Assembly: GCA_020723925.1 (NCBI GenBank)
Contig: DYHX01000002.1
Coordinates: 1 to 54,577 of the forward strand
From: Nitrospira japonica
Lineage (GTDB): Bacteria; Nitrospirota; Thermodesulfovibrionia; Thermodesulfovibrionales; DYHX01
Reading direction: 5' to 3'
DNA length: 54,577 nucleotides
Below are positions 4,391 through 19,076 of the stretch, piece after piece. How positions within the stretch are numbered: the first letter of the stretch is position 1; each line of letters starts with the position of its first letter. A program made the translations under genes and the position numbers. The notes beneath the pieces were generated by a model, which worked only from the letters and a program-made list of their open reading frames with translations, did not search any database and had not been told where the DNA came from.

Positions 4391-4410
4391 CTTAGGCTGA
4401 GAAAAGCTTG

Positions 4411-4516
4411 AGATTGCTTCGCCTACGGCTCGCAATGACCCCTCCGTGATCCTCCCCTTAGTAAGGGGAGGAATGGTGAGGTTGTCGTTGCGAGGAGCGG
4501 AGTGACGAAGCAATCT
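4411..4516. repeat. Palindromic MITE/REP-like element between the TBDR and cbiZ
   Basis: The arms agattgcttcgcctacggctcgcaatgac (4411-4439) and gtcgttgcgaggagcggagtgacgaagcaatct (4484-4516) are imperfect inverted repeats. They flank a central hairpin cctcccctta-g-taaggggagg (4451-4471). The element translates into the RNDN / PPLTKGR-type pseudo-peptides seen in spurious ORF 4202-4513. Confidence 0.7.
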
Positions 4517-4534
4517 AATAATTGGAGGATATAA

Positions 4535-5359: not shown

Positions 5360-5438
5360 AAGATCATTAATGTATTTTTATAAAAAACCTGAACTCGAAG
5401 TTCGGGGAGCAGTTTTAATTTATATCAAAGAAATTAAG

Positions 5439-5490
5439 GCCATGAAGGCTTTGCACCACGAAGGTGCAGACTTCATGGCTTTTTTGTTTG
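5439..5490 (+). terminator. Rho-independent terminator after cbiZ (nested hairpin plus U-run)
   Basis: The outer stem is gccatgaag (5439-5447) paired with cttcatggc (5471-5479). It encloses an inner hairpin gcacc-acgaa-ggtgc (5453-5467), followed by ttttttgttt. Confidence 0.8.
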
Positions 5491-5564
5491 AGACTCCAGA
5501 ATCATCCAGCCACGAAGGTCAGCCATATCTTCCAGGAAGGAAGGAAAAACTTTTTGGAGGATAT

Positions 5565-6269
5565 ATGGAAAAGACAATCTGTAAAAATGTAGCAACAGTT
5601 CAATTCTGGGACAGTTATGCAAAATGGTATAAGCTCTGGATGGAGCATAACGACTATCATCACAGGATCATTGAAACGCTTACCTCTATGGTCGAGCCGG
5701 GCTGGAGAGTTCTTGACATCGGCGCAGGAAACGGTGTCCTTTCTTTGCCTTTATGCGCTATTGGTTGTGAGGTGACGGCCATTGAACCTTCTGTTGGAAT
5801 GAGAAACCTTCTTTATGAAGATGCGTTCGGCAGAGGCATTGACTGGATTAATGTTGATGAGAGGAGATGGGAAGATGTTCCAAATTTTGCTCTGAACGAT
5901 TATGACCTCATTATGGCATGCAACAGTCTGCATCTGACAGAGATGGGCTTCAGACAGGCGCTTGAAAGGATATTCCATGCAAAACCGAAAAATGTCTTTG
6001 TCGTTACAGAACTCGGCGCTCCGGAGATAAAAGTTAAATGGCAATATGGAGATTACACAATGCTATTTACTAAATGCTATGAAACAGAGAGTTCTCTTGC
6101 CTATCACTCAACTGATGAGATTGTGGAATACTGGTCCTTTATAAAGGGCAGGAGACTCCATTCGTTTGAAATAGAAGGAATAATATCGAGGACTGTTTTT
6201 GAAGGCGATCATATGTGGCTAAAGGATACAGCCCGTGTAGGGATGTATTGGTGGGAGAGAAACACTTAA
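5565..6269 (+). CDS. Class I SAM-dependent methyltransferase
   Basis: Motif I is VLDIGAGNGVLSLPL. I placed the start at ATG 5565 (MEKTICKN..., SD ggagg 5 nt upstream) rather than at 5313. The upstream part of the tracked ORF runs through a terminator and hairpin repeats. Confidence 0.75.
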   Translation: MEKTICKNVATVQFWDSYAKWYKLWMEHNDYHHRIIETLTSMVEPGWRVLDIGAGNGVLSLPLCAIGCEVTAIEPSVGMRNLLYEDAFGRGIDWINVDERRWEDVPNFALNDYDLIMACNSLHLTEMGFRQALERIFHAKPKNVFVVTELGAPEIKVKWQYGDYTMLFTKCYETESSLAYHSTDEIVEYWSFIKGRRLHSFEIEGIISRTVFEGDHMWLKDTARVGMYWWERNT

Positions 6270-6292
6270 AGTAATATTTTTCATAAATATTT

Positions 6293-6318
6293 GAACTAAG
6301 CCACGAAGGCTTTAGTTC
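6293..6318 (+). other. Hairpin gaactaagcc-acgaa-ggctttagttc (CCACGAAGG motif copy 4) in the leader of the second TBDR operon
   Basis: Read directly: an 11-bp stem with one bulge and the same ACGAA loop as the copies at 617-629 and 5453-5467. Confidence 0.6.
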
Positions 6319-6361
6319 TCCTAAGAAAGGAGGTGACAGAAAAAATCTTAGGAGGTGTTTG

Positions 6362-8560
6362 ATGAGAATGGGTTTAATTGGTCTTATTAGTTTAATTGGC
6401 TGCATTGGTTTACTGACAGATATTACAACGGCATTGGGAGAAGAAAAAGAAACAAGGCTTGAAGAGATTGTGGTAACCGCCACAAGGACAGAAAAGGAAT
6501 TAGAAGCCGCGCCGGGCAGCGTGTCGGTAGTTACGAAAGAAGATATGGAAAAGAAAAATACGAAAACAGTTGATGAGGCATTAAACACCGTTTCAGGTGT
6601 CTTTGACAGGCGAGGCAAGGGGCTTATGGATACCCGCTCACAAGTTAGCATCAGGGGAATCTCGGGTCAGAGTAGAACCCTTATCCTTTTGGATGGAATG
6701 CCCCTCAACAGCGCATATACGGGTGATGTCCAGTGGGGCGGCCTTTCACCTGAAGATGCAGAGAGGATAGAGGTTGTGAAAGGCCCGTTTTCAAGCCTTT
6801 ACGGCGGATATGCTATGGGCGGTGTTGTAAACATTATCACAAAGATGCCTGAAAAGAGGGAATTTGTATTTAAGACAGGCTACGGCTCGGGTTTTGAGAG
6901 AGGCGAGGCTATGGATGATTTAAGAAAGTTTTATCTTTCTTATGGAGATAAATTTAAGGATAAATTAAGCCTGTTTGTAAGTTATGGATATAAGGCAACA
7001 AACGGCTATCCAAGTGATTTCAATGTCCAGTCTTCAAAACCAACAGCAGGAATTACAGGCTGGTCTTATACAACGGATAATCAGGGCAATACCCGTTACT
7101 TAATAGGCGACAGAGGCGACAACAGGTGGTGGGACGACAATATCACATTCAAGGCAGGGTATGATTTTTCTAAAACCACAAAGGTTAATCTATCTTTTAT
7201 CAGAACCCGGTATGAATACAATTATGATAATCCGCATACATATCTCAGGAATGCGTCAGGCAACGAGGTCTGGTCATACGGGACTGTGAAGGAATCTTCG
7301 TTCCTTTCAGGCTCTGGAGGCAGGATTCAGAACATCTACAACATAACCTCCGAAACGCAATTCTCTACGGTCAAGGCTAAGCTTTCCCTCGGACTCGTTG
7401 ATCAGGAAAATTCATGGTATGTAACGCCTGATTCAACTGCTACCCGCTCCGGCGGTACGGGCAAGGTCAGCGAAACGCCATCACAAAGCTATAATGCAGA
7501 TATTCAATTCACATTGCCTATTTTTGATAGGCATATTCTCACCTTCGGAGGCTCTTTCAGGCATGGCCGGGCAGATACAAAGGAGCATAATCTCGCAAAC
7601 TGGAAGGATGAGAAATCAAAGACCGCTTTAACATACCAATCAAAAGGCAAAGACATTACATACGCATCGTTTGTTCAGGATGAAATAATAATTCTTGATA
7701 ACCTCACCGCATACATCGGCTTCAGGCATGACTGGTGGGAGACATATGACGGCTATGCCAACGATGTGGGTAAGGCAGGATACCCCAAAAATTATGATTC
7801 ACGGAAGGCGTCATCTTTCAGCCCCAAGGCTGCCCTTGTTTATAAACCTTTTGAAAAGACGACTTTAAGGACATCTGTCGGAAAGGCATTCAGACCGCCG
7901 ACGGTTTATGACCTTTACAGGACATGGACATCATCATCCGGCGTCACATATGCGGGAAATCCTGATTTAAAGCCGGAGACAACGACCTCATGGGATATTG
8001 GGATTGAGCAGGGCTTATGGAAAGGTGCAAAGATTAGGGCAGCTTATTTTGAGAATTACATGAAAGACCTGATATATCGTAAAACAGTGTCTGCCACCCT
8101 TCAGGAGAATATCAATGCGGGAAAGGCTGAAAGCAAGGGCGTAGAGATCGAGGCTGAGCAGAGGTTTGATAAATGGCTCAGGCTCTTTGCCAATTTCACA
8201 TATACCGATGCAAAGATAAAGAAAAACGATGCAAAGCCTGCAACAGAAGGCAAGAGGTTGACTCAGGTGCCTGAGAGCATGTTCAACATTGGCGGCGATT
8301 TTGAAAAAGGTCCTTTGTCAGCATCCCTGACAGGCAGGTATGTAAGCAAACGTTATTCAAATGATGAGAATAAAGATGTAGTGAATAATGTATATACATC
8401 TTACGACCCTTATTTTGTTGCGGATGCAAAGGTCTCTTATAAACTTACAAAGTTTGCCACACTCTCTTTTTCTGTAGATAACATCTTTGACAGGGATTAT
8501 TTCGCCTATTACAAGGCACCAGGAAGGTCATGGTTTGGAGAGATAACATTAAGGTTTTAG
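6362..8560 (+). CDS. TonB-dependent outer-membrane receptor (second copy, 732 aa)
   Basis: TonB box LEEIVVTATR. Plug motif AERIEVVKGPFSSLYGGYAMGGVVNIITK. The C-terminus GEITLRF is aromatic. The ATG at 6362 follows SD aggagg (the track starts 3 nt earlier at a TTG). Confidence 0.85.
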   Translation: MRMGLIGLISLIGCIGLLTDITTALGEEKETRLEEIVVTATRTEKELEAAPGSVSVVTKEDMEKKNTKTVDEALNTVSGVFDRRGKGLMDTRSQVSIRGISGQSRTLILLDGMPLNSAYTGDVQWGGLSPEDAERIEVVKGPFSSLYGGYAMGGVVNIITKMPEKREFVFKTGYGSGFERGEAMDDLRKFYLSYGDKFKDKLSLFVSYGYKATNGYPSDFNVQSSKPTAGITGWSYTTDNQGNTRYLIGDRGDNRWWDDNITFKAGYDFSKTTKVNLSFIRTRYEYNYDNPHTYLRNASGNEVWSYGTVKESSFLSGSGGRIQNIYNITSETQFSTVKAKLSLGLVDQENSWYVTPDSTATRSGGTGKVSETPSQSYNADIQFTLPIFDRHILTFGGSFRHGRADTKEHNLANWKDEKSKTALTYQSKGKDITYASFVQDEIIILDNLTAYIGFRHDWWETYDGYANDVGKAGYPKNYDSRKASSFSPKAALVYKPFEKTTLRTSVGKAFRPPTVYDLYRTWTSSSGVTYAGNPDLKPETTTSWDIGIEQGLWKGAKIRAAYFENYMKDLIYRKTVSATLQENINAGKAESKGVEIEAEQRFDKWLRLFANFTYTDAKIKKNDAKPATEGKRLTQVPESMFNIGGDFEKGPLSASLTGRYVSKRYSNDENKDVVNNVYTSYDPYFVADAKVSYKLTKFATLSFSVDNIFDRDYFAYYKAPGRSWFGEITLRF

Positions 8561-9279
8561 GAGTAAAGGCAAGGGCATTGCCGTTGGTGGTTTCAATGTT
8601 GTTGCACATGGCGGTGATGGTTGTTTTTGCCTTTACAAATCAAGAAAAGGAGAAGATTTTTCATGTAGAGCTAATGATGCAGGATATGGGATATATGCAT
8701 CAACACCAAGTAAAACAGTCATATCGGACATCGTCTCGGCTTTCTCAGCCTGTCATAAGAGATATAGATTCTTCTCTGTCTCATGAGGAAAAGACAGAGA
8801 TAAAGACTGATAGCGTTAATACGATGGAAACATTGCCAACGGTAGAAGGTTCGAACGCTGATACTGTTTCAGCCAAATCCACAGTTTCTATTTTAACAAG
8901 CGGAGACAAGGCAGTGTCTGAAAAATCATTACTCAATGCAAAGGCAGGCGGTAATTCAGTCGCAAAGATTATAGGTCATGGGAATGCTGTTGTAGAAAGC
9001 GAATTCGGCTCTGCTAATGCCCCATCATTCTTAAAAAGGGTAATTCCTGAATATCCACGAGTGGCAAGGCGGCTTGGCAGAGAAGGGAGGGTAGTATTAA
9101 TGCTTCACATTAATAAACATGGGAAACTGCTTAATGTAGAAATTATTGAAAAGGCAGGGTACGGCTTTGATGAGGCAGCGATGGACGCTGTAAAGTCCTC
9201 ATCTTTTCAACCAGCAAGAGTAAACGACAAGCCTGTGGACTGCAAGGCAATATTGCCGATAAGCTTTAAACTGCAATAG
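8530..9279 (+). CDS. tonB: Energy transducer TonB
   Basis: One N-terminal TM helix (ALPLVVSMLLHMAVMVVFAF), a linker, then a TonB C-terminal domain PEYPRVARRLGREGRVVLMLHINKHGKLLNVEIIEKAGYGFDEAAMDAVKSSSFQPA. It overlaps the TBDR by 31 nt; the exact start is uncertain. Confidence 0.8.
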   Translation: MVWRDNIKVLGVKARALPLVVSMLLHMAVMVVFAFTNQEKEKIFHVELMMQDMGYMHQHQVKQSYRTSSRLSQPVIRDIDSSLSHEEKTEIKTDSVNTMETLPTVEGSNADTVSAKSTVSILTSGDKAVSEKSLLNAKAGGNSVAKIIGHGNAVVESEFGSANAPSFLKRVIPEYPRVARRLGREGRVVLMLHINKHGKLLNVEIIEKAGYGFDEAAMDAVKSSSFQPARVNDKPVDCKAILPISFKLQ

Positions 9280-9291
9280 AGGAGGACAAAT

Positions 9292-10059
9292 ATGGACTTA
9301 AATATTATATTGTGGATTGGCGGTATGCTCTTCAGCCTCAGCATATTTGCCATAAAAGTAGGCTTTGGTCTCGGCTTTAGCAGAATAAGATGGAAAGGCA
9401 TCTTTCTGACCCTTTCCATGTATCTTGCGCTGTTTGTCCTTATTGCAACGCTCTCAGAACAGTTGATCAAAATACTTGAGCCAGTATTGAGGAAAGGCCC
9501 TTATCTCCATGCTGCTATGGCATTAGGGATGATTGTATGGGGAATTCTCTTATTGAGAGCACAGAACAAAGGGCACAGAGGACAGACAAATTCAAGATTT
9601 AAAAATGAAAACTCACAAATCATTGACTCTGAACTCCCAACTCTGAACTCATTACTTCTGTTAGTTCCCTGTCCTATCTGCCTTACTGCAATGACATTCT
9701 CTGTATGGTCCGCATTAAATGTAGTTAAATTCCCCGCAGGGCTGGTTGGTCTGGGCTTAGGATTTGTTTTTATTTTGTTGTCGCTTACTGTTTATTTTTC
9801 CTTAAAACTCATAACTTTTAACTCATCACTTATAACTCAAAGAATCGGTCTGGGATTAAGCATGATGGCGATAGGGCTTTATTTCATTGCATCCTTGTTT
9901 ATTCCTGTAAAGATAGAGGAAGCGAAGGGGGTATACATGTCGTTTCTTGCAGAGAACGCTAACACTGCTTTAAATGACAGCATCGGAGTTTTTATTGTTC
10001 TTTTTGCAGCCATGTTAATTGGCTTTTTATTAAATAAGAGAACGGAGGTCAAAGAATGA
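9292..10059 (+). CDS. Polytopic membrane protein, DUF2162-type predicted transporter with an intramembrane CPIC motif
   Basis: The protein is 255 aa with about 7-8 TM helices. CPIC is at 9670-9681 inside a helix (LLLVPCPICLTAM). From memory, its pattern and its partners (MotA/ExbB-like, DUF2149-like, CobN) match the DUF2162 family; this was not verified by search. Confidence 0.6.
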   Translation: MDLNIILWIGGMLFSLSIFAIKVGFGLGFSRIRWKGIFLTLSMYLALFVLIATLSEQLIKILEPVLRKGPYLHAAMALGMIVWGILLLRAQNKGHRGQTNSRFKNENSQIIDSELPTLNSLLLLVPCPICLTAMTFSVWSALNVVKFPAGLVGLGLGFVFILLSLTVYFSLKLITFNSSLITQRIGLGLSMMAIGLYFIASLFIPVKIEEAKGVYMSFLAENANTALNDSIGVFIVLFAAMLIGFLLNKRTEVKE

Positions 10060-10670
10060 ATATCCTTGCAGGTCTTGAGACATTCCTGTATGTGATTTCA
10101 TCTGCACTTTTCTATCCTGTGGTGGCAGGGCTTGTTCTGCTTACATTCTGGATTGTTGTCTCTTTTGGTGGTTTTTTGAGGGAGCATATAGAGAGAAAAC
10201 AGGGAAACCCATCTGTATTGGGTAGATTTAAAAAAATCCTCGAATCGGAACTTTCAATTAATGCCGACAATACTGATATAAATCTGGAAAGGCGGCTGCA
10301 GGAAGCAGAGCTTGGACTTATCAAATCCCTTGATAAAATCAGATTTGCCATTCGTGTTGGTCCCGCCCTCGGCTTGATGGGAACACTAATTCCAATGGGC
10401 ATCGCACTTTCTGCCCTTGCACAGGGTGATATGCCGAAAATGGCCAGCAGCATGGTTACTGCCTTTACCACAACCGTTGTAGGACTTGCCTGCGGTGTGG
10501 CTGCATATTTGATGTCATTGGTGAAAGAAAAATGGGTAAGGGCTGATATTAACGAGATGGATTACCTCACAGAGCTAACGCTCCGAAATTCAAAATTAAA
10601 AATTCAAAATGCAACCATGGAGGAAAAAGATGAGATTTTTGAAGAGGCACAGACGCTTCGAAAGATATGA
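10056..10670 (+). CDS. MotA/TolQ/ExbB proton-channel family protein
   Basis: Three-TM topology with the family signature RVGPALGLMGTLIPMGIALSAL....TAFTTTVVGLACGVAAYL. Its start overlaps the previous stop as ATGA. Confidence 0.8.
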   Translation: MNILAGLETFLYVISSALFYPVVAGLVLLTFWIVVSFGGFLREHIERKQGNPSVLGRFKKILESELSINADNTDINLERRLQEAELGLIKSLDKIRFAIRVGPALGLMGTLIPMGIALSALAQGDMPKMASSMVTAFTTTVVGLACGVAAYLMSLVKEKWVRADINEMDYLTELTLRNSKLKIQNATMEEKDEIFEEAQTLRKI

Positions 10671-10968
10671 ACAGCCCCTTGAAGACCCAATTTCAGGGGT
10701 CGCAAATCTCTTTGACGCAAGCGTGGTTTTTATCGTGAGTATGATGATTGCCCTTTTCATGGCTTACAACATGCTCGATCTGCTTGACCCTAAATCGGAG
10801 GTCACGATCACAAAAAAGACCGCCGATGGAAAGATAGAGATAATCACAAAGAAAGGCAAGGAGATTAAGGCAAAAAAAGTGACCGATAAGAGATTAAGCG
10901 GTGAAGGCGAGAGGCTCGGAACAGCGTATCAATTAAAAGACGGGAGGGTTATTTATGTGCCAGAGTAA
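10630..10968 (+). CDS. DUF2149-type single-pass membrane protein (ExbD/TolR-like partner of the channel)
   Basis: MRFLKRHRRFE...GVANLFDASVVFIVSMMIALFMAY has an Asp at the helix entry, as in ExbD/TolR, followed by a small periplasmic beta-rich domain. The ATG at 10630 is preceded by ggagga (the track starts at 10609). Confidence 0.6.
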   Translation: MRFLKRHRRFERYEQPLEDPISGVANLFDASVVFIVSMMIALFMAYNMLDLLDPKSEVTITKKTADGKIEIITKKGKEIKAKKVTDKRLSGEGERLGTAYQLKDGRVIYVPE

Positions 10969-13900
10969 AGAAAATTCAAAAATTAAAAATCAAAATGTAA
11001 AATTAAGGTATTCCATAACTTTTATTTTTGCATTTTTCATTTTGCATTTCAGCATCGCCCATGCAGAGCCTTTGAAAATAAGCCTTTTGCTCGGAGACAC
11101 CCATTCAAGGACAGCCCTTGATGCAGTCAAGGCAATAGAAAAAGAATACCCTGATATAAAGGGAAAGATTGGCTTTCATGTCTATACGAGCAGAGGTATC
11201 AGGGAAAGGAAAGGTGAAGATATGGCTGTTGCATCCTCAAAGGTCGTTTTCATCCTCCTCATTATGGACAGACAGGGAGTTGAGCTGGTGAGACTGCATA
11301 TTGAAAAGGTGATAAAAAATGGTGGTAAGGTTTATGCAGTTGGTGGGATTTATAACAAAGAACACAAGGACATGGGGATAATAGATGATGAGGAGGTTAA
11401 GGCTTACTACAAAGAAAACGGCTTTGAGAATATAAAAAACATGATTCTGTTTGTGCTAAACAGAGATTTAGGGTTTAAGGTCTCATATAAAATGCCGGTT
11501 GCAGTCCCTGATTTTGGAATCTATATAAAACATGACAAAAGAGCTGTGGAGACTTATGATGAATTTTTAAAGTCTTACACACTTAACGCATCACGCATTA
11601 CGCATTACGATAAATGGATAGGGCTTGCCTTCAACAAAAGTTCCTTTGATTCCGACAATCTCAAGAATATAGACGCAGTAATTGAGAGCCTTGAAAGAGA
11701 AGGCTTTAATGTCCTGCCTGTCTATGGCTATCCACCCGAGAAGGCAATAGAGAAATACTTCTTTGATGAAAAAGGAAAAAGCAGGGTGAGATTTATCGTT
11801 GGACTCTCCATGAAGGTCGGTATAAATCCTAAGGCGCTGAATCCTGTCCTTGAGAGGCTCAATGTCCCTATTATCAATGCCATTACTCTTTACACCAAAT
11901 CAAAAGAGGAGTGGGAACAATCGCCTGCCGGCCTTGACATCTTTGAGAGGTCATGGCAAATAGCCCTGCCGGAGCTTGCAGGCATTATCCAGCCCACTGT
12001 CATTGCATCAAAGGAGAAGATGACTGATAAGGAGACCGGCATTGAATACATGGAGGAAAGACCGATACCGGAAAGGATAAGCAGGCTTACAGACAGGATT
12101 AAGGCATGGCTTAATCTTCAGGACAAACCAAACAAGGACAAAAAGATTGCAATCATCTATTACAATTATCCACCCGGCAAACAGAACATAGGCGCATCCT
12201 ATCTGAATGTGCTTCCTGAAAGTTTGTGGGAAATATTAAACAAGCTTAAGGCCGAGGGATATGACATAAGCAATCAGTCAGTGGTCAGCAATCAGGAAAT
12301 TAGTAAGGAGCAACTATTTAATAATATCCATAACTACGCAAGGAATATTGGCAATTGGGCTGCCGGAGAGATCGACAGGCTTGCAAAGAGTGGAAAGCCA
12401 ATACTGATTCCGATTGATACATATAAAAGATGGTTTGAGGAACTGCCGGAAGGGTTAAAGAAGGCTATCATAAAAAACTGGGGCAGGCCTGAAGATAATA
12501 AAGTCATGTCATGGACAGGCGCAAGCGGCACAAAATATATAATCATACCTGCTGTTCAATACGGAAATATTATTTTCACTCCGCAGCCTTCAAGGGGCTG
12601 GGAGCAGGATTCAATAAAGCTCTACCACGATGTCACTCTCGCACCGCACCATCAATATGTCGCCTTTTATTTATGGCTTAAAAAAGGATTTCAGGCGGAT
12701 GCTGTTGCGCATATCGGCACTCACGGCACGCATGAATGGCTCTCCGGTAAAGAGGTTGGATTTACGAATGAAGATCCTCCGGAGGCATTGATACAGGATT
12801 TGCCCAATATATATCCATACATTGTCGATGATGTTGGAGAAGGGCTTCAGGCAAAGAGGCGAGGCATGGCTGTAATCATCGACCATATGACACCGCCATT
12901 TGATAGGGCGGGAATGAATAAGGAATTGAAAGAGCTTGCAGCGCTTATTAACGACTACAATGCGGCTAAAGAGAAAAGCCCTTCACTTGCTGAGACAAAG
13001 CTTGATGATATAAATAAACTCGTAAAAAAGACAGGTATTCTTACAGACCTCAAACTCAAAGAAATTAAAAACCATGAAGAAATAGAGGAACTTGAGCATT
13101 ACATAAAAGAGATTTCAGAAAGACAGACTCCATTCGGACTTCACACCTTTGGCAAGACGCCTGATGGAAAATACAGAAAGAGCACAGCAGAGGCAATTCT
13201 ATCTATTGAAAAAGGGCTGTCAGATGAAGAACGGGGAAAAAGAATTGCTGATATGGAGCAAAGGATAATGCAATCAGGCAAGAGAGAACTTGACTCTTTT
13301 ATCGCAGCGCTTGCCGGCAAATACATCCCTGCTGGTCAGGGCAACGATCCGATTAGAAATCCTGATTCCTTACCAACGGGTAAAAATTTCTACTCCTTCG
13401 ATCCAACGAGAATACCATCAAAATCCACATATGAAATGGGTGTGAGGCTGGCAAAGGAACTCATAGAAGGCTATAAGCAAAGGCATGACATATATCCAGA
13501 CAAACTCACATTTAATCTCTGGGGTGTTGAAACCATAAGGCATGAAGGCGTGATGGACTCACAAATTATGTATCTCATGGGAATAAAGCCGAAATGGGAT
13601 GAAAGGGGAAGGGTAATAGGCATTGAGGCAATCCCCCGCTCTGAACTCGGAAGACCCCGCATTGATGTAACCATTGTCCCATCAGGGCTTTACAGGGATT
13701 TATTTTCCAATCTCATGGCACTGCTCGATAATGCTGTGAGCTTAGCAAAGGAACAGAATGAAGAAGACAATATCTTAAGGTCAAATGTCTTAAAGACCAA
13801 GAAGATGCTCATGGAAAAAGGTATTACAGAAGACAGGGCAGAAAAGCTTGCATCTGTAAGGCTATTCACCGTGCCTTCAGGCGCTTACGGAACAAACCTT

Positions 13901-14962
13901 GATAAGGTAATCCCAATGTCAAATACATGGGCTGATGAAAAACAGGTTGCCGATGTATATTTCATGAGGATGAGTTATATGTACGGGCAGGGGTTCTGGG
14001 GTGAAAAAATAGTGCGACAGAACGATAGTGCGACAGAGCGACAAGAAGATATAAGTCTTACCCTTTTAAAAACAGCCCTTTCAGGAACAAAGATGGCTGT
14101 TCACAGCCGTTCGGGTAATGTGTATGCAACCCTTGATAATGATGACTTCTTTCAATACCTTGGCGGTACTGCAATGGCGATACGTGCAGTTGATGGAAAG
14201 ACACCAGAGGTTTATGTCACGAATATGTCCAATCCCAAAATGCCGAAGCAGGAGACCCTTGAGAAATTCATGGGTAGGGAGATGAGGGCGAGGTATCTTA
14301 ATCCTGAGTGGATAAAGGCCATGATGAAGGAGGGCTATGCAGGCGCTCGTTTTGTTGATAAGGTTGTTGAGCATCTATGGGGATGGCAGGTTACAGTGCC
14401 GGAGGCAGTGGATGCAGCAAAGTGGAATGAGATGTATGAGACCTATGTCCTGGACAGGAACGGACTAAACATAAAAGAGATGTTCAAACAGTCAAAGAAC
14501 ATGTGGGCTTATCAATCCATTGTAGCGAGGATGCTTGAGACAGTGAGAAAGGACTATTGGAAACCTGATAAAAAAATAGTTGAGACCCTCGCAAAGGAAT
14601 ATGCAGAGAGCGTGAAAGAGGTTGGCCTTGCATGCTGCGACCACACATGCAATAATCCGTTGCTTACAAAATTTACCTCTTCTGTGCTGATGTCTGTGCC
14701 TGGATTGAAGGCTCAGGTGAATGGATTTATGAAGGCATTAAAAACAGTCCAGAGTCAAGAGTCAGGAGTCAAGAGTCAAAAAGACAAATCACTAACAAAA
14801 ACATCTGCACCAGACGGAAAAGGTAAAAAGGTAGAGGGCTACGAAATACAGGATATAAATGCATCTGGGGCATCATCCGTACCAATCCCGTGGCTATTCT
14901 TGCTCGGATTTTTAGTATTTTTAGGGCTGATAATGCTTGGATGGAGAAAGACAAGGACATAA
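10955..14962 (+). CDS. cobN: CobN/Mg-chelatase-H family protein (1335 aa) with an N-terminal signal peptide and a C-terminal membrane anchor, HmuS-like
   Basis: It has the length of the CobN family and I recognise CobN-like stretches throughout (e.g. AHIGTHGTHEWLSGKEVG, MAVIIDHMTPPF, GLHTFG, NPDSLPTGKNFYSFDP, NLWGVETIRHEG, VPSGLYRD). The N-terminus ...RYSITFIFAFFILHFSIAHA-EP is signal-like. The C-terminus is PIPWLFLLGFLVFLGLIMLGWRKTRT (14882-14959). Confidence 0.85.
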   Translation: MCQSKENSKIKNQNVKLRYSITFIFAFFILHFSIAHAEPLKISLLLGDTHSRTALDAVKAIEKEYPDIKGKIGFHVYTSRGIRERKGEDMAVASSKVVFILLIMDRQGVELVRLHIEKVIKNGGKVYAVGGIYNKEHKDMGIIDDEEVKAYYKENGFENIKNMILFVLNRDLGFKVSYKMPVAVPDFGIYIKHDKRAVETYDEFLKSYTLNASRITHYDKWIGLAFNKSSFDSDNLKNIDAVIESLEREGFNVLPVYGYPPEKAIEKYFFDEKGKSRVRFIVGLSMKVGINPKALNPVLERLNVPIINAITLYTKSKEEWEQSPAGLDIFERSWQIALPELAGIIQPTVIASKEKMTDKETGIEYMEERPIPERISRLTDRIKAWLNLQDKPNKDKKIAIIYYNYPPGKQNIGASYLNVLPESLWEILNKLKAEGYDISNQSVVSNQEISKEQLFNNIHNYARNIGNWAAGEIDRLAKSGKPILIPIDTYKRWFEELPEGLKKAIIKNWGRPEDNKVMSWTGASGTKYIIIPAVQYGNIIFTPQPSRGWEQDSIKLYHDVTLAPHHQYVAFYLWLKKGFQADAVAHIGTHGTHEWLSGKEVGFTNEDPPEALIQDLPNIYPYIVDDVGEGLQAKRRGMAVIIDHMTPPFDRAGMNKELKELAALINDYNAAKEKSPSLAETKLDDINKLVKKTGILTDLKLKEIKNHEEIEELEHYIKEISERQTPFGLHTFGKTPDGKYRKSTAEAILSIEKGLSDEERGKRIADMEQRIMQSGKRELDSFIAALAGKYIPAGQGNDPIRNPDSLPTGKNFYSFDPTRIPSKSTYEMGVRLAKELIEGYKQRHDIYPDKLTFNLWGVETIRHEGVMDSQIMYLMGIKPKWDERGRVIGIEAIPRSELGRPRIDVTIVPSGLYRDLFSNLMALLDNAVSLAKEQNEEDNILRSNVLKTKKMLMEKGITEDRAEKLASVRLFTVPSGAYGTNLDKVIPMSNTWADEKQVADVYFMRMSYMYGQGFWGEKIVRQNDSATERQEDISLTLLKTALSGTKMAVHSRSGNVYATLDNDDFFQYLGGTAMAIRAVDGKTPEVYVTNMSNPKMPKQETLEKFMGREMRARYLNPEWIKAMMKEGYAGARFVDKVVEHLWGWQVTVPEAVDAAKWNEMYETYVLDRNGLNIKEMFKQSKNMWAYQSIVARMLETVRKDYWKPDKKIVETLAKEYAESVKEVGLACCDHTCNNPLLTKFTSSVLMSVPGLKAQVNGFMKALKTVQSQESGVKSQKDKSLTKTSAPDGKGKKVEGYEIQDINASGASSVPIPWLFLLGFLVFLGLIMLGWRKTRT

Positions 14963-14980
14963 GTTGCTATTTTGCTGTTC

Positions 14981-15946
14981 ATGGGGTTAAATAAAAGGAT
15001 GGAAATTCCTGATTGGCTGAAACAGACAGAACACAGAATACAGAACACAGAATACAGAAAAACAAAAGAGAAGTTTCTTGATAAGACACTCAGCCATGTC
15101 GTCTCATTCACTGAAGATACGATGTTTAATGAAAGGGTTTCTGCAAAGAAAGGCCTTCTGCAGGGGATCGAACCCAGATTAAAGACAGCCTGCCTCCTCG
15201 GGTTCATTGTTGTTTTGAGTCTCCAGAAAACTATCGGAGGTATTGCTTTATTTTTGCTCATGTCTTTTTTTATGGCATTTGCATCTAAGGTGTCGTTTGC
15301 CCTGCTCTTGAAGAGGCTTATACCTGCCGCTGTGTTTACAGCATTCATAGCCATGCCTGCAACGTTGAATATAATTGTGAAGGGCGAGGCCCTATTAACG
15401 CTATATACCTTTGAAAAAACCTACAGCCTTGGCCCTATAGCCATTCCAGCAGAGGTATCGATAACAAGGCAGGGGTTGCTCAGTGCATTAACTCTGTTTT
15501 TGAGGGTTATTGCATCTGTCTCAATAGTTTTTCTTTTGACCCTGACAACACCACCAAACAGACTTATAAAGGCAGTCTCCTCTTTTATGCCAAGGGCATT
15601 GAAATCAATAGTCTCCATAAGCTACAGATACATCTTCTTCCTTGTTCGGGAGGTTGAGCAGTTTATAATGGGCTTTAAATCAAGAAATGTCTCATTGGGG
15701 TTCCCAAAAGGTCGTAAGACCTTTTGGGGTGCAGAGCAGAAATGGGTTGCATCAAGGGTAAGCCTTTTATTCTCGATCAGCCTGAGGCTGAGCAATGAGC
15801 TTGAGCGAGCTATGGAGTCACGGGGATACAAGACTGAAGATGATAGATTTCAGATGTCAGATTTCAGATTTTCGAGATATGATGCAGGCTGGATAATCTT
15901 TTGTATAATCTTTTCAGGAGCTATGATTTGGAAGTCTTTGGCGTAG
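14981..15946 (+). CDS. cbiQ: Cobalt ECF transporter T component CbiQ
   Basis: EcfT/CbiQ-type polytopic protein (…ITRQGLLSALTLFLRVIASVSIVFLLTLTTPPNRLIKA…ISYRYIFFLVREVEQFIMGFKSRN). The start is ambiguous among in-frame TTG 14972, ATG 14981 and ATG 14999. Confidence 0.8.
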   Translation: MGLNKRMEIPDWLKQTEHRIQNTEYRKTKEKFLDKTLSHVVSFTEDTMFNERVSAKKGLLQGIEPRLKTACLLGFIVVLSLQKTIGGIALFLLMSFFMAFASKVSFALLLKRLIPAAVFTAFIAMPATLNIIVKGEALLTLYTFEKTYSLGPIAIPAEVSITRQGLLSALTLFLRVIASVSIVFLLTLTTPPNRLIKAVSSFMPRALKSIVSISYRYIFFLVREVEQFIMGFKSRNVSLGFPKGRKTFWGAEQKWVASRVSLLFSISLRLSNELERAMESRGYKTEDDRFQMSDFRFSRYDAGWIIFCIIFSGAMIWKSLA

Positions 15947-17007
15947 ACAAAATATCTTACACCTACAAAGACGGCAAGAAAGCCCTTGATGAAGTCTCGT
16001 TTAATGTCCGAGAAGGAGAGAGCCTGACAATAATCGGGACAAATGGCTCAGGCAAATCAACACTCCTTTATCTTCTTGACGGTCTCCTGATGCCTGAATC
16101 AGGAAGCATAAAGATATTCGGCAAGGATTTAGACAATGGATTTCTGCCCGAGTTCAGAGAGCGGATATCTCTTTTATTCCAGAACCCTCAGGTCCAGCTC
16201 TTTTTATTGAGTGTCTGGGATGAATTGTGTTTCGGACCGTTACAGCTTGGACTTAATAAGGATGATATCAAAAAAAGATCAGAGGATATCCTTAAATTAT
16301 TAGGGATCGAACATCTGAGAGAGAGAGGCCCGTGGAATCTTAGCAGCGGAGAGATGAAAAAGGTCGCCCTCGGCACATGCCTGAGCACAAACGCCGATGT
16401 AATCCTTCTTGATGAGCCAACAACAGGACTCGATCCGAGGAGTCAGGTAGAGCTTGTTGATTTGATAATTGGCCTTCAAAAGGCTGGAAAGACCATAATC
16501 ACAGCAACCCATGACCTCGGAATCATTGAGGATATCTCTGACAGGACAATTGTTCTCGGAGAAGACCACAGGGTTCTTTTGGAAGGGAAGCCGTGGGATG
16601 TGATGGAGGACACAAAGGCACTTCTTCAGGCAAACCTCATCCACAAACATGCACACAGGCACTGCTGGTATGTGCATGAGCACAGCCATTTTGGAGAGCA
16701 CAAACATGAACATATATCAGCTACAACAGTCGGCAGTCTTCAGTCGATAGTCGATAGTCATGAAGAAAAAAATTTAGGAATAAAAGAGGAGAAATGTTTT
16801 GAGATGAGCGATCTGGATAAGCTTAAAAGGTTGCTTGAGCACTGGGTGGAGCACAATGTTGGGCATGCAAAGACCTACACCGAATGGGCTGAGAAGGCAG
16901 ATGCGATGGGCAAAAACAAGCTTGCATGGACATTAAAAGAGATTGCGGATGAGACAGAAAGGCTCAATCTGCTATTTAACAGGGCAATAGAAGCGACAAA
17001 TCTTTAA
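15928..17007 (+). CDS. cbiO: Cobalt ECF transporter ATPase CbiO with a His-rich linker and a C-terminal helical HWVEHN module
   Basis: Walker A GTNGSGKST, signature LSSGEMKKV, Walker B ILLDEPTTGLD, H-loop ATHD. These are followed by HKHAHRHCWYVHEHSHFGEHKHEH (16642-16713) and a 67-aa helical tail. TTG 15928 (MEVFGVDKISY) lies 7 nt after aggag; the track starts at TTG 15901. Confidence 0.85.
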   Translation: MEVFGVDKISYTYKDGKKALDEVSFNVREGESLTIIGTNGSGKSTLLYLLDGLLMPESGSIKIFGKDLDNGFLPEFRERISLLFQNPQVQLFLLSVWDELCFGPLQLGLNKDDIKKRSEDILKLLGIEHLRERGPWNLSSGEMKKVALGTCLSTNADVILLDEPTTGLDPRSQVELVDLIIGLQKAGKTIITATHDLGIIEDISDRTIVLGEDHRVLLEGKPWDVMEDTKALLQANLIHKHAHRHCWYVHEHSHFGEHKHEHISATTVGSLQSIVDSHEEKNLGIKEEKCFEMSDLDKLKRLLEHWVEHNVGHAKTYTEWAEKADAMGKNKLAWTLKEIADETERLNLLFNRAIEATNL

Positions 17008-17069: not shown

Positions 17070-19076
17070 TTAATCCGATTTCTTCCATACAATAGTTCTG
17101 TTTTTACCCTCTACCTTTGCCATGTAAAGAGCCCTGTCTGCATTCCTTGTCAGTTCATTTGTGTCTTTTCCATCATCTGGAAATGTGGCAACGCCTGCAC
17201 TTACAGTAATGCAGCGACGGGGAAAGGTCTTCCATATGCATGGTAAGAGTTCCTGGATGTTCCTTCTTATCCTCTCAGCAACAAGATATGCCTCGTCTTT
17301 AGCTGTCTGTGGCATGATAACAGTAAATTCTTCCCCTCCAAAGCGTGCTAATACATCATTAACCCTTAAGGACTCTCGAGCTATATGTGCAATCCCCTTT
17401 AGAACATCATCCCCTGCAAGGTGTCCTTCTGTGTCGTTGAAGAGTTTAAAGTCATCGATGTCAAGCATGGCCAAAGAAAAGGGCAGGTCATGACGAACTG
17501 AACGCTGAATTTCTTCTATAAAACGATCATGGAAATAGCGCCTGTTAAACACTCCTGTGAGAGAGTCGGTAATCGAAAGCTCCTTCATCTGCTCAGCAAG
17601 GCTGTAATAGTTAGACGCCCTTAAGGCGATGGAAGCATAAGGGGCAAAATAGCTCAGCAAGGCCAGGTCTTGTTCTGAGAATACCTCTCCTGTTGTTTTA
17701 TCCGAGATATTGAGAACACCTATGGTCTCTTCACCAACCTTTAATGGTATACAAACGAATGACCCTCCTTTGTAATGAGGTCTGGCTTTATATGCAGTGC
17801 CTCCTATATTTTCAACTAAAAGAGGTATACCCTCTTTGAACACCTTCCCTGCAACTCCCTCTCCTATCTTGATTTTTATATCCCGCGTAAGCCATTTGTT
17901 TATGCCCTTTACAGCCTTTATTGACAGCTCGCCTCTATCTTCATCGGGAAGCATTAGCGAACCCCTTTCTGCCTTTAAAAGGCGAGTCGTAGTATCCACA
18001 ATTGTCTCATACAGGGCATCAGGGGTATGTAACACAGCAGGCAAACTTGTGGCTGCGAGGTTAAGGGCAGCTATATCCTTGGTGTGTGCATCATAAACGG
18101 TCTGCAGAGATGTGTTTCTTAACACAAAACCAACAAGGTTGCAGAGCTCGGATATACATTCAGATTCTTCCCTCGCGATAAGGGAGTTGAATATTCCTAA
18201 AACTCCAAATACATTTTCTTTGCAAAAAATCGGGAATAAATGTATGGATGCTATATTATCCGGAAAGCCGAGTCTTAATATCTCCATGTTATCATTGCAG
18301 GATACAGGACTGCGCCCCTTGATGGATCGAGAAATCATCCATGCTTCTTCTTTCAGAAAGACAGACTCAACATCGCCCTTCGATCTCCCCGCTGAAATCA
18401 TCGGCTTAAAGAGGGCGCCGTCTTTAACCATTACAGAAACGGTATCCACATTAAGCAGGAAGAGAAGGGCATCAACCATGAGGGAATAAACCTCACCTGT
18501 TGTAATAGGCTGTTGAATGTTTGACAAGACATCTATAATGGTTTTTGCCCATTGGTATCTCTTACGGTTCAGATTCCGTTCATAACCGCACCTTAATACT
18601 GTGTTGAGCAGAAGTTTTATATGCGTAGATATACTTTGAATCGTTTCGTAGTCTCTCACCGTAATCTTTTGTGACCAGGATTGGAGCTGTGATGGGGTAA
18701 GCCCATAGCTCTGCCCTTTTTTCATATAGAACTCTTCAAAATCCCTGTTCGAAAGATAAAATGCACCGCCAACCAAAACAAGGGCACAACCATCTACCTG
18801 TGATGGTATGAAAAGATGATGCTGGTCAGCAGGCCCTTTGAACAGTGAGATTTCCTTCCTCATTGCTGCCATTTCAATCCCTTTCCGCACAAAATCCCCA
18901 TATTCCTCTCTTCCTGCCGTATATGATTTTATAAATGCGAGGAGTTTGTCTTCATATTTTGGAGGGATGAGTAAATGCCCCCTGTCATCGTATGTGGAAA
19001 ATGAAAAACCGGTAAGCTCTGAGAACGAATCCTGAACAACGGATAATCCCTGAATATCAACAAGTTCCAAGTTCAT
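17070..19076 (-). CDS. Diguanylate cyclase: PocR-like sensor, two GAF domains and a GGDEF domain
   Basis: The C-terminal part DSLTGVFNRRYF...LAMLDIDDFKLFNDTEGHLAGDDVL...RFGGEEFTVIM carries a GGEEF active site. GAF-like repeats occupy the middle. The N-terminal 150 aa resemble the PocR sensory domain pattern. Confidence 0.8.
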   Translation of the reverse strand: MNLELVDIQGLSVVQDSFSELTGFSFSTYDDRGHLLIPPKYEDKLLAFIKSYTAGREEYGDFVRKGIEMAAMRKEISLFKGPADQHHLFIPSQVDGCALVLVGGAFYLSNRDFEEFYMKKGQSYGLTPSQLQSWSQKITVRDYETIQSISTHIKLLLNTVLRCGYERNLNRKRYQWAKTIIDVLSNIQQPITTGEVYSLMVDALLFLLNVDTVSVMVKDGALFKPMISAGRSKGDVESVFLKEEAWMISRSIKGRSPVSCNDNMEILRLGFPDNIASIHLFPIFCKENVFGVLGIFNSLIAREESECISELCNLVGFVLRNTSLQTVYDAHTKDIAALNLAATSLPAVLHTPDALYETIVDTTTRLLKAERGSLMLPDEDRGELSIKAVKGINKWLTRDIKIKIGEGVAGKVFKEGIPLLVENIGGTAYKARPHYKGGSFVCIPLKVGEETIGVLNISDKTTGEVFSEQDLALLSYFAPYASIALRASNYYSLAEQMKELSITDSLTGVFNRRYFHDRFIEEIQRSVRHDLPFSLAMLDIDDFKLFNDTEGHLAGDDVLKGIAHIARESLRVNDVLARFGGEEFTVIMPQTAKDEAYLVAERIRRNIQELLPCIWKTFPRRCITVSAGVATFPDDGKDTNELTRNADRALYMAKVEGKNRTIVWKKSD

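Follow-up and report, generated by a model that had tools for sequence, protein, structure and literature searches.

What might a protein of the CobN chelatase family be doing outside the cytoplasm, in an operon that starts with a gene for a TonB-dependent receptor (TBDR) and ends with genes for a cobalt transporter? This question is raised by positions 6362–17007 of contig DYHX01000002.1 (assembly GCA_020723925.1), a stretch of 54,577 nucleotides from Nitrospira japonica (GTDB lineage Bacteria; Nitrospirota; Thermodesulfovibrionia; Thermodesulfovibrionales; DYHX01) that is referred to below, at its full length, as the window. Eight genes, all on the + strand and mostly overlapping, encode in this order TBDR2, TonB, a DUF2162 protein, a MotA/ExbB-like protein, a DUF2149 protein, a CobN-like protein, CbiQ, and CbiO. 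The Pfam assignments of all eight pass the curated cut-offs, so that the families named in the original prediction are upheld; its co-directional layout and gene junctions were likewise confirmed, with a 12-nt gap between TonB and DUF2162 added to them.

The reading preferred here, to which a probability of roughly 45% is given, is that a periplasmic dechelatase would free cobalt from TonB-imported cargo, probably corrinoids trimmed by an exported CbiZ, for uptake through CbiMNQO. The operon would probably serve cobalt acquisition for B12 on the chassis of the Hmu system of Bacteroidota. The kind of system is already known: Hmu has been characterized, and relatives linked to B12 or to Zur were noted in 2003, 2012, and 2015. 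The window proteins were mapped onto 41 loci, designated by L numbers, and four further annotated contexts were added.

An Exported Relative of HmuS

The sixth gene of the unit (10955–14962, +; ATG start; 14-nt overlap with the gene before it) encodes a BtuS/HmuS-like protein of 1335 aa that belongs to the CobN family (CobN-Mg_chel, 1078.5 bits). Its best match in the Protein Data Bank (PDB) is HmuS (9d26; 2.7e-148), ahead of CobN and ChlH, and it falls under every NCBIfam equivalog cut-off for CobN and BchH. Canonical CobN was rejected as its identity on scores (NF004645, 961 bits against a cut-off of 1619; TIGR02257, 665 against 822) and on its separate branch in the tree; BchH was ruled out by cut-offs and tree, and HmuS itself by motifs and tree. 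With the CobNST and ChlHID enzymes it shares the CobN-Mg_chel fold family, the HxGxHG and GEG motifs, and a second motif that is nearly CobN-like, but it differs from them in its separate branch, in its predicted export and anchoring, and in the absence of an AAA+ partner. The lack of an AAA+ chelatase subunit, already noticed in the original prediction, holds for all 37 open reading frames (ORFs) of the window scanned with Pfam.

An extracytoplasmic location had been proposed for this protein, and the predictions agree with it. According to a hydropathy scan, a signal peptide ending in AHA before EP is present in 105 of 117 full-length orthologs, and a C-terminal transmembrane (TM) helix, "SAPIPYLF...", with a basic tail in 111 of the 117; the CobN-like protein is thus predicted to be extracytoplasmic and tethered by a C-terminal TM anchor, a feature common to HmuS and the archaeal homolog. 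The C-terminus encoded at 14890–14962 is unusually conserved among the orthologs, "VEGYEMQD...SSAPIP(Y/W)LF-TM-RRK", and is laid out like a sorting signal, in which a short motif is followed by a TM helix and then by a tail of basic residues.

The relationships were estimated from a neighbor-joining (distance) tree of 19 sequences and 1079 columns with 300 bootstraps, which is not a full phylogeny. The window clade is recovered with 100% support, its union with the Pseudomonadota/Accumulibacter forms with 100%, and the addition of the archaeal forms with 88%; these together with HmuS are split from three canonical CobN and a BchH in 100% of the replicates (300/300). The phylogenetic check thus places the protein with HmuS and the archaeal forms, in one major branch of the superfamily, and not with canonical CobN or BchH.

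HmuS has been experimentally shown to be a heme dechelatase that releases Fe(II) from heme (PMC12583661), and the iron released from heme needs FeoAB in Bacteroides fragilis (PMC6460266). The HmuYRSTUV system of Bacteroidota (PMC12583661) has in common with the window a TBDR, an exported and anchored CobN-family protein, HmuU (32% identity), and HmuV (41%), all in one operon. The Bacteroides hmu locus does hold a TBDR, a CobN-like, a MotA-like, and a DUF2149 gene, in agreement with the original prediction; the match of the small membrane proteins is incomplete. HmuY is absent from the window (Pfam) and HmuT is not homologous to DUF2162, which leaves counterparts of R, S, U, and V only; besides, the gene order is T-U-V-S-like in the window and S-T-U-V in hmu. 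The CobN-like protein is 30% identical to a Bacteroides HmuS over 1079 shared columns, while the threshold of the HmuS family is at least 50% to the HmuS of B. thetaiotaomicron. In a Bacteroides locus (L045), hmuS appears split into 6266–8992 and 9001–10671 (908 and 556 aa) with a frame change in the Met-rich region, and all 120 of the 120 matches listed for the C-terminal part of HmuS are fragments of 383–668 aa from many assemblies. The split could be either a recurrent assembly error or a real frameshift site.

Both proteins carry an HFGTHG-type histidine and the GEG glutamate. In the window protein, the CobN-Mg_chel domain, HIGTHG (HFG(T/A)HG, with His538 of HmuS), and the GEG glutamate (Glu577) are conserved, and His538 of HFGTHG is essential for HmuS turnover (PMC12583661). 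Other positions have diverged. The Met-rich insertion in domain IV, with 19 Met in 145 aa in HmuS, has shrunk to 19 aa with 2 Met in the window, and the site-1 ligand His254 of HmuS is Val or Ile in the whole clade (Val in the window); the other site-1 heme ligand, Met79, falls within a stretch where the alignment is unreliable. The HmuS motif LSLDHxxEFMGG (His1209, Glu1212) is replaced by LDNDDFFQYLGG, a second motif of the CobN type that lies near those of true cobaltochelatases, LDSDDYYQFEGG in 9uk9 and ADSDDYFQYHGG in 7c6o. At its metal-facing position the protoporphyrin enzymes HmuS, BchH, and ChlH have His, and the window protein has Asp.

These differences bear directly on the idea that the protein is an HmuS ortholog taking iron from heme, with the B12 context being coincidental. 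The best PDB match agrees with that idea, and TBDR1 and TBDR2 both score best, below the cut-off, against the heme/hemoglobin receptor subfamily TIGR01785. However, the identity of 30%, the missing Met-rich insertion, Val in place of His254, and the CobN-type motif in place of LSLDHxxEFMGG all speak against it, as do the lack of HmuY and of any Fe transporter nearby in the Pfam scans of the window. Moreover, riboswitch control and a cobalt context mark the window clade, 24 related loci having a riboswitch ahead of the module; the hmu locus of Bacteroides lacks a riboswitch and has an iron/heme context. The heme reading is disfavored and scarcely credible.

The CobN type of the second motif is also what one would expect of periplasmic insertion or exchange, in which the protein would work in the chelatase direction and load cobalt into metal-free or wrongly metalated corrinoids, with a stator in place of AAA+ CobS/CobT. 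There is no ATP in the periplasm and no AAA+ partner is encoded, and the putative stator is invariably present. Metal-free corrinoids, however, are not known environmental nutrients, and the adjoining cobalt importers suggest an inward flow of the ion. Since, in addition, the sole characterized exported member of the family is a dechelatase (PMC12583661), insertion is considered very improbable.

A Conserved Module in Bacteria and Archaea

The order DUF2162-MotA-DUF2149-CobN-like is kept in 31 related loci from at least five phyla, with one extra gene inserted within the core in L011 and in L018. Because this four-gene core recurs in 31 independent loci, the arrangement is far beyond chance. 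DUF2149 was found 5′ of the CobN-like gene in every locus with enough flanking sequence, and a TonB-dependent receptor adjoins the module almost always. The receptor most often next to the core is of the TBDR2 type (6362–8560 in the window, +; ATG start; Pfam Plug and TonB_dep_Rec), whose orthologs (36–79% identical) precede the DUF2162 gene in some 20 loci. Orthologs of the CobN-like protein with 58–84% identity are found in Nitrospirota, Thermodesulfobacteriota (Desulfobacca acetoxidans, Trichlorobacter, and Syntrophales), an anammox planctomycete, Methylacidiphilum, and Desantisbacteria; the nearest homologs come from metagenome-assembled genomes of Nitrospirota and Thermodesulfovibrionales. 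In this clade the module lies within de novo B12 operons that include CbiK and CysG, and no corrinoid importer of the BtuCD type was found in any Pfam-annotated neighborhood. The neighborhood census suggested by the original prediction thus gave the core in 31 loci, a riboswitch in 24 of 27, and CbiMNQO in Nitrospirota and Geobacterales. In L052 (1–5360), a canonical CobN and a ChlD-like AAA+/VWA protein are encoded directly 5′ of the riboswitch-controlled exported module, with CbiK directly 3′; therefore, canonical CobN and the exported form are not redundant.

The MotA-like/DUF2149/CobN-like trio also occurs in three other settings, namely in Archaeoglobi without receptor or TonB, in the heme operon of Bacteroides, and in the Zur-regulated PA1922–1925 of Pseudomonas aeruginosa. 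Three more distant DUF2149 clusters were sampled, and a CobN-like gene stands directly beside DUF2149 in two of them and in the same gene cluster in the third (L054). With DUF2149 linked to a CobN-like gene in all six lineages sampled, the genomic context argues that the trio is a functional unit. The Methanobrevibacter locus L041 showed only large ORFs upstream and no partner genes.

Several of these relatives deserve a closer comparison. The Archaeoglobi loci L043 and L044 have the same four genes in the same order, which bears out the statement that such sets occur in archaea; they share the C-terminal TM anchor, have a metal importer alongside, and read LDNDDVFQYLGG at the second motif, but they lack TBDR, TonB, riboswitch, and CbiZ, and their CobN-like protein of 1614 aa is only 39% identical. 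Sister to the window clade are L030 and L032 (51% and 46% identical; Pseudomonadota/Accumulibacter), without DUF2162 and without a riboswitch. In Pseudomonas aeruginosa, PA1922–1925 encode by annotation a TBDR, a CobN-like protein, a MotA/ExbB-family protein, and DUF2149, with a methyltransferase (PA1921) upstream (PMC4542158). PA1922–1925 belong to the Zur regulon and are up 45- to 147-fold in a znuA mutant, in which cellular cobalt is raised (PMC4542158, PMC8531726, PMC9431628). The annotation of PA1921–PA1925 thus shares with the window a methyltransferase gene, but the operon is controlled by Zur and zinc, without a riboswitch.

A B12-context family of CobN-like proteins named BtuS goes back to Rodionov et al. 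(2003), as cited in PMC6460266, and a cobN-exbB-exbD-tonB cluster of the G. lovleyi plasmid pSZ77 was described in 2012 (PMC3403914). The T. lovleyi plasmid protein is 62.5% identical to that of the window, and its cluster has the same TBDR-DUF2162-MotA-DUF2149-CobN-like layout behind tandem riboswitches; as in the window, this CobN homolog lies beside B12 genes and without CobS/CobT. The combination that marks BtuS, at least as relayed in PMC6460266 (a CobN homolog, a TBDR, and a cobalamin riboswitch), is found in the window, with a hairpin intervening. The BtuS and pSZ77 clusters had only been described, with no discussion of the DUF2162, MotA, and DUF2149 partners. The window departs from them in that cbiQ and cbiO are cotranscribed after the CobN-like gene, TonB lies inside the unit, and TBDR1, CbiZ, and a methyltransferase are encoded upstream. 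The claim that no characterized system has this wiring therefore stands as regards characterization, but not as regards novelty, given BtuS (known here through PMC6460266), pSZ77 (PMC3403914), and PA1922–1925 (PMC4542158).

The Channel Pair, DUF2162, and TonB

Between the receptor and the CobN-like protein, the unit encodes four small proteins. TonB (8530–9279, +; ATG start; Pfam TonB_C, 5e-21) overlaps TBDR2 by 31 nt and has an S-x3-H motif (SMLLH), read from the sequence, in its TM segment. The polytopic membrane protein DUF2162 (9292–10059, +; ATG start; Pfam, 1.8e-60) follows after the 12-nt gap. The MotA/TolQ/ExbB-family proton-channel protein, a homolog of HmuU (10056–10670, +; ATG start; Pfam MotA_ExbB, 3.6e-12), is joined to it by an ATGA overlap, and the single-pass DUF2149 protein, a homolog of HmuV (10630–10968, +; ATG start; GGAGG ribosome-binding site; Pfam, 4.7e-33), overlaps in turn by 41 nt.

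The MotA/ExbB-like protein has three hydrophobic segments, in agreement with the three TM helices of ExbB; its identity is 32% to HmuU of Bacteroides and 38% to the homolog from Archaeoglobi. Of the partners, DUF2149 is the most strongly conserved, with 70–96% identity within the clade and 41% to HmuV as well as to the archaeal homolog; Archaeoglobi DUF2149 clusters at 90% with a protein labeled A. fulgidus. Residues N26, L27, and D29 are invariant or nearly so and form N-L-x-D in the single TM helix, which in the AlphaFold2 (AF2) model (predicted local distance difference test, pLDDT, 76) is followed by a small all-beta periplasmic domain. No PDB neighbor of this model was found with Foldseek, nothing being better than E = 0.6. 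The pair thus has in common with TonB-ExbB-ExbD a MotA_ExbB domain, a single-pass partner with a membrane aspartate, and a TonB with a TonB_C domain in the operon, but DUF2149 has no detectable ExbD homology. Homology to ExbD was tried and rejected (hhalign probability 1.4%, no fold match). Because the comparison with the ExbD profile aligns the TM helix alone, DUF2149 is best regarded, from its topology and TM aspartate, as an analog of ExbD/TolR and not as a detectable homolog. Of its earlier description as ExbD-like, the topology and the TM aspartate remain, and the homology does not.

Whether this pair merely energizes TonB was the subject of a test set beforehand. Canonical ExbB-ExbD-TonB sets adjoin the module on the same strand in at least eight related loci, and on the T. 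lovleyi plasmid pGLOV01 such a set lies directly 3′ of the CobN-like gene; one Archaeoglobi contig has DUF2162-MotA-DUF2149-CobN-like without a receptor and without TonB. The pair therefore persists both beside canonical ExbBD-TonB sets and in archaea, and the co-residence in at least eight loci, together with the DUF2149-CobN-like link in six of six lineages, argues, in agreement with the original prediction, that it is not merely a TonB energizer. In the window itself, the MotA-like/DUF2149 pair might simply energize TonB, or serve both.

DUF2162 has an invariant, membrane-embedded P126-C127-P128-x-C130 (PCPxC), together with H73 and K22, all of which are also found in the archaeal homolog. 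Its AF2 model (pLDDT 71) has eight helices and gave no significant PDB match with Foldseek; the top TM-score, 0.41 (E = 1.7), belongs to CcdA, a thiol electron carrier, and is no more than a lead. A relation to Bacteroides HmuT was considered and discarded (no Pfam hit; hhalign probability 0.2%).

Riboswitch and Hairpins

A cobalamin/adenosylcobalamin riboswitch was detected with Rfam on the same strand, just 5′ of the module, in 24 of the 27 loci with enough upstream sequence. Several loci have tandem copies, and in Desulfobacca the second copy stands directly before DUF2162. It was not found in L021 or in the Pseudomonadota/Accumulibacter loci L030 and L032, with at least 2 kb upstream in each. 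Judging from these positions, cobalamin repression via the riboswitch is the rule for the clade.

The window is less straightforward. Its upstream context (CbiM, riboswitch, TBDR, CbiZ) is as originally described, and the clade context is that of cobalt and B12. The single riboswitch aptamer (2068–2277, +; RF00174, 69.5 bits against a gathering score of 31.5) precedes TBDR1 and CbiZ and lies 4 kb 5′ of the eight-gene unit. TBDR1 (2366–4390, +), immediately 3′ of the riboswitch, has Plug and TonB_dep_Rec domains and is under all NCBIfam equivalog cut-offs. Between cbiZ and a methyltransferase gene, before TBDR2, there is a terminator-like hairpin of about 20 bp followed by the U-tract UUUUUUGUUU (inverted repeat I1; 5436–5495, +), which is kept with compensatory changes in L050 and L005; the region 5355–5570 folds far better than shuffled sequences (z = −5.3). 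Because this hairpin intervenes, direct riboswitch control of the eight-gene unit is uncertain in this genome, and the unit may escape it. The riboswitch invoked as context of the module is hence well founded for the clade and, as a control of the unit, uncertain for the window. The leader regions of cbiM, TBDR2, and the methyltransferase gene hold no second riboswitch and no NiCo element that Rfam would report at E ≤ 1.

The methyltransferase gene behind the hairpin (5565–6269, +; Pfam Methyltransf_25/11; ORF open from 5313, likely start ATG 5565) encodes an S-adenosylmethionine-dependent enzyme with 80% identity to its counterpart in L050, 75% in L005, and 60% in L036. A second hairpin in the 5355–5570 spacer pairs with the GGAGG ribosome-binding site of this gene. 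The spacer matches no Rfam family at E ≤ 1 and may be an undescribed attenuator. A 9-mer, CCACGAAGG, occurs in four copies (0.29 expected), all on the + strand: before cbiM (619–627), within the terminator-like hairpin (5456–5464), before the methyltransferase gene (5510–5518), and before TBDR2 (6301–6309). Each copy presents a loop ACGAA closed by CC/GG in a small hairpin, and equivalent places in L012 and L050 hold copies too; the 9-mer is possibly a regulatory site that these leaders share. The spacer between TBDR1 and cbiZ (4391–4537) forms one very long hairpin (−66.8 kcal/mol, z = −6.8) without a U-tract, which could be an element resembling repetitive extragenic palindromes (REP) or miniature inverted-repeat transposable elements (MITE), or a transcript stabilizer. 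The riboswitch itself is 98.7% identical over 149 nt to L004 (5931–6079) in the midst of coding DNA of about 72% identity, which suggests strong constraint or a recent exchange.

Cobalt Transporter Genes and Metal Neighbors

The genes for the energy-coupling factor (ECF) transporter are split in the window. CbiM and a PDGLE protein are encoded at 697–1736, and CbiQ and CbiO at 14981–17007. CbiM (697–1368, +; Pfam CbiM, 2.6e-57; NCBIfam NF008873, 311 bits against a cut-off of 225) is the S component of a cobalt ECF transporter, and the small PDGLE-domain membrane protein after it (1371–1736, +; Pfam PDGLE, 1.1e-08), which corresponds to the C-terminal portion of NF005598, a model of a CbiM-PDGLE fusion, sits where CbiN would be. 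The T component CbiQ begins 18 nt after the CobN-like gene (14981 with ATG, or TTG 14972, to 15946, +; Pfam CbiQ, 1.2e-23; TIGR02454, 112.7 against a cut-off of 111.8), and the ATPase CbiO overlaps it by 19 nt (15928–17007, +; TTG start with AGGAG upstream; Pfam ABC_tran, 8.1e-31). CbiM and CbiQ pass curated cut-offs and CbiO has ABC_tran; the sequences fit Co or Ni alike. The 3′ part of cbiO (about 16640–17007) encodes a linker rich in His (HKHAHRHCWYVHEHSHFGEHKHEH) and an extension of the C-terminus by about 70 aa; the extension is conserved in L004, L012, L034, and L036 and may act as a regulatory tail that senses metal.

In the closest relatives, L004 and L012, cbiM-PDGLE-cbiQ-cbiO stand together and are followed by the riboswitch and then by TBDR2 and the core. 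After the PDGLE gene of the window there is a frameshifted remnant (1726–1930, +) of the peptide that these relatives have between cbiO and the riboswitch. It was recognized by a two-frame tblastn match to the CbiO C-terminal extension, and the peptide obtained by joining the two frames has 77% identity to its syntenic counterpart in L012 and 67% to that in L004. Because the relatives keep the four genes intact and the window retains this remnant, the sequence comparison argues that the placement of cbiQ-cbiO 3′ of the CobN-like gene is a local, lineage-specific rearrangement, and "fusion" of the module into an ECF operon, as first proposed, is an overstatement. Other ECF arrangements occur in the Nitrospirota loci L006, L036, L038, and L050.

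The metal genes beside the trio differ from one lineage to another. In Nitrospirota and Geobacterales they are CbiMNQO (with CbiM within the operon in L050), in Archaeoglobi a DtxR-like repressor and a ZnuA-type ABC importer, in L053 (7742–13523) CbiM::PDGLE-CbiQO, CobW, and HypA, and in L054 CbiQ and an ABC ATPase. In L053, MotA-DUF2149-CobN-like are followed by CobW and HypA and flanked by CbiM::PDGLE-CbiQ-ABC and a second ECF set, with no TBDR; the trio is therefore linked to Ni/Co metallochaperones. On the whole, the neighborhoods favor a metal-liberating role in which Co2+ would be handed to CbiMNQO, because metal importers stand beside the trio, the literature on HmuS and Zur agrees, the module lies in de novo B12 operons, and no BtuCD-type importer is present in the annotated neighborhoods.

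The Nature of the Cargo

The CbiZ of the window (4535–5359, +; adenosylcobinamide amidohydrolase family; Pfam CbiZ, 3.7e-53) has an N-terminal signal peptide, as judged by its hydrophobic N-terminus MKKRVLWILIFLLIPSIVMA, and all module-linked CbiZ homologs carry signal-peptide-like N-termini. The gene is integrated in the module in at least six loci; it lies between DUF2162 and MotA in L018, and directly before the core in L002, L011, and L035. Because exported CbiZ is placed before or inside the core, periplasmic corrinoid trimming is likely to be part of the system in CbiZ-bearing lineages, which points to a corrinoid cargo. In L039 (5323–7332), the CbiZ next to the module is fused to a BtuF-like periplasmic binding domain that bears a signal peptide.

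A cargo other than a corrinoid would require that the TBDR import a Co(II) or Ni(II) chelate or a metallophore, that the CobN-like protein strip or buffer the ion for the ECF transporter, and that CbiZ and TBDR1 be a corrinoid salvage unit of their own, linked to the module by no more than common regulation. It is true that CbiZ is absent from most loci, that the trio of L053 stands with CobW, HypA, and two ECF sets without TBDR or CbiZ, and that in the window the terminator-like hairpin parts TBDR1-CbiZ from the methyltransferase-TBDR2-module unit. Furthermore, TBDRs controlled by B12 riboswitches have been predicted as cobalt receptors (PMC7689651), and the P. aeruginosa homolog is in the Zur regulon (PMC4542158). 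However, the CobN-family fold surrounds a tetrapyrrole cavity and all characterized members act on tetrapyrroles (PMC12583661). The insertion of CbiZ into the core of L018 and its place immediately ahead of the core in L002, L011, and L035 are also hard to reconcile with a separate unit, and metallophore biosynthesis genes were not seen in the neighborhoods examined. A non-corrinoid chelate is hence an improbable cargo.

If the cargo is a corrinoid, it may also be salvaged whole. CbiZ would then trim imported cobamides or cobinamide to cobyric acid, the CobN-like protein would be a tethered binding and hand-off protein, DUF2162 and the stator would import the corrinoid, and CbiMNQO would be nearby solely because genes of the B12 regulon cluster. 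Corrinoid-uptake loci have as their standard layout a riboswitch and then a TBDR, CbiZ is a salvage enzyme that here is exported and embedded in the module, and one locus has the BtuF-like::CbiZ fusion. CobN proteins in general bind corrins tightly, DUF2162 is a "predicted transporter" according to Pfam, and the module might fill the role of an inner-membrane corrinoid transporter, no other being present in these loci; corrinoid transport was indeed the proposal of Wagner et al. for the pSZ77 cluster (PMC3403914). On the other side, HxGTHG and GEG are strictly conserved, which would be needless in a mere binding protein, and the characterized homolog is a metal-releasing enzyme (PMC12583661). 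Homologous trios also stand by metal-ion importers, under Zur control or with a DtxR-family repressor gene, without any corrinoid context (PMC4542158). Finally, DUF2162 is absent from the L030, L032, L053, L054, and L055 forms and has no homolog in HmuT of Bacteroides; it is therefore no universal cargo importer. Salvage without demetalation is the main competing explanation, and a somewhat doubtful one.

Several considerations weigh against the preferred reading, cobalt release in the periplasm. The clade is known from sequence alone. To our knowledge, biology offers no precedent for taking cobalt out of a corrin while the ring stays intact, and Co-corrins are highly inert compounds; nothing relevant came from a literature search on corrinoid dechelatases. 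The established role of CbiZ is ring salvage, which favors the reuse of corrinoids over their demetalation, and the sequence of riboswitch and TBDR is a classic signature of corrinoid uptake. The adjacency of CbiMNQO may reflect mere clustering of the B12 regulon. In the window, a terminator-like hairpin stands between riboswitch and module, and the operon has a TonB, yet canonical ExbB and ExbD are absent from the whole 54 kb (tblastn), so that the channel pair could have TonB as its client. In the active site, the second metal-facing histidine of HmuS, His1209, is replaced by Asp; therefore, the chemistry may be another one and might even insert the metal, as CobN does. Asp or His at this position was tried as a predictor of corrin or porphyrin substrates. 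It fits five CobN and three protoporphyrin enzymes, but neither L053, which has His in a Ni/Co context, nor L055, which has Glu; since two lineages break the pattern, it is only suggestive.

Other Features of the Window

No convincing intrinsic terminator was found within 6362–17007 by a consensus scan, whose counts are at chance level. Exact or near-exact tandem duplications of 14 nt at 15026–15053 (5′ part of cbiQ) and of 16 nt at 14009–14040 (CobN-like gene) are not multiples of 3 nt, and both ORFs remain open. The convergent neighbor on the − strand (17070–19076) encodes, according to Pfam, a diguanylate cyclase with the domains PocR-GAF-GGDEF; sensor domains of the PocR type are linked to B12/propanediol regulation, and a cyclic di-GMP-I riboswitch lies near the module in L035. 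The remaining window holds diderm housekeeping genes, namely Lpx genes, BamA, type IV pilus genes, and purine and riboflavin genes.

Proposed Mechanism and Significance

In the preferred reading, a TonB-dependent receptor would first bring a cobalt-bearing cargo, most likely a corrinoid, into the periplasm, where, in the window and several relatives, exported CbiZ could remove the nucleotide loop or the aminopropanol arm. The membrane-tethered CobN-family protein would then act as a dechelatase, as HmuS does on heme, with catalysis by the HxGTHG histidine and the GEG glutamate and a second motif of the CobN type. The MotA/ExbB-like protein and DUF2149 would form a proton-driven stator for the CobN-like protein, perhaps also serving TonB in bacteria, and the PCPxC motif of DUF2162 might hand on electrons or metal. 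Finally, the freed Co2+ would enter through CbiM/PDGLE-CbiQ-CbiO and feed de novo B12 synthesis. A dechelatase coupled to the proton-motive force, as suggested in the original prediction, would agree with all of the evidence and is a plausible mechanism, with better support than before. A bolder version, in which the stator replaces the AAA+ motor of class I chelatases outside the cytoplasm and powers an exported enzyme that removes cobalt from the corrin ring, must for now be called unlikely. If it were true, a corrinoid would for the first time be seen to lose its metal in a biological reaction, and anaerobes would recycle cobalt from environmental cobamides through CbiMNQO.

The supply of cobalt for B12 synthesis in anaerobes of sulfidic, cobalt-poor habitats is poorly understood, and no cobalt-specific outer-membrane pathway has been confirmed (PMC7689651). 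The module spans Nitrospirota, Thermodesulfobacteriota, anammox Planctomycetota, Methylacidiphilum, and Desantisbacteria, and is tied to B12 riboswitches and de novo B12 operons. The linkage of the trio in bacteria and archaea, even beside canonical ExbBD, would mean a new client for proton-driven stators, and it offers a testable role for HmuU and HmuV of the heme system of gut Bacteroides and for the Zur-regulated PA1922–1925. Should the stripping of cobalt from corrinoids prove true, it would be a new tetrapyrrole reaction, and corrinoid cross-feeding would have to be reread, with corrinoids being a source of cobalt as well as cofactors.

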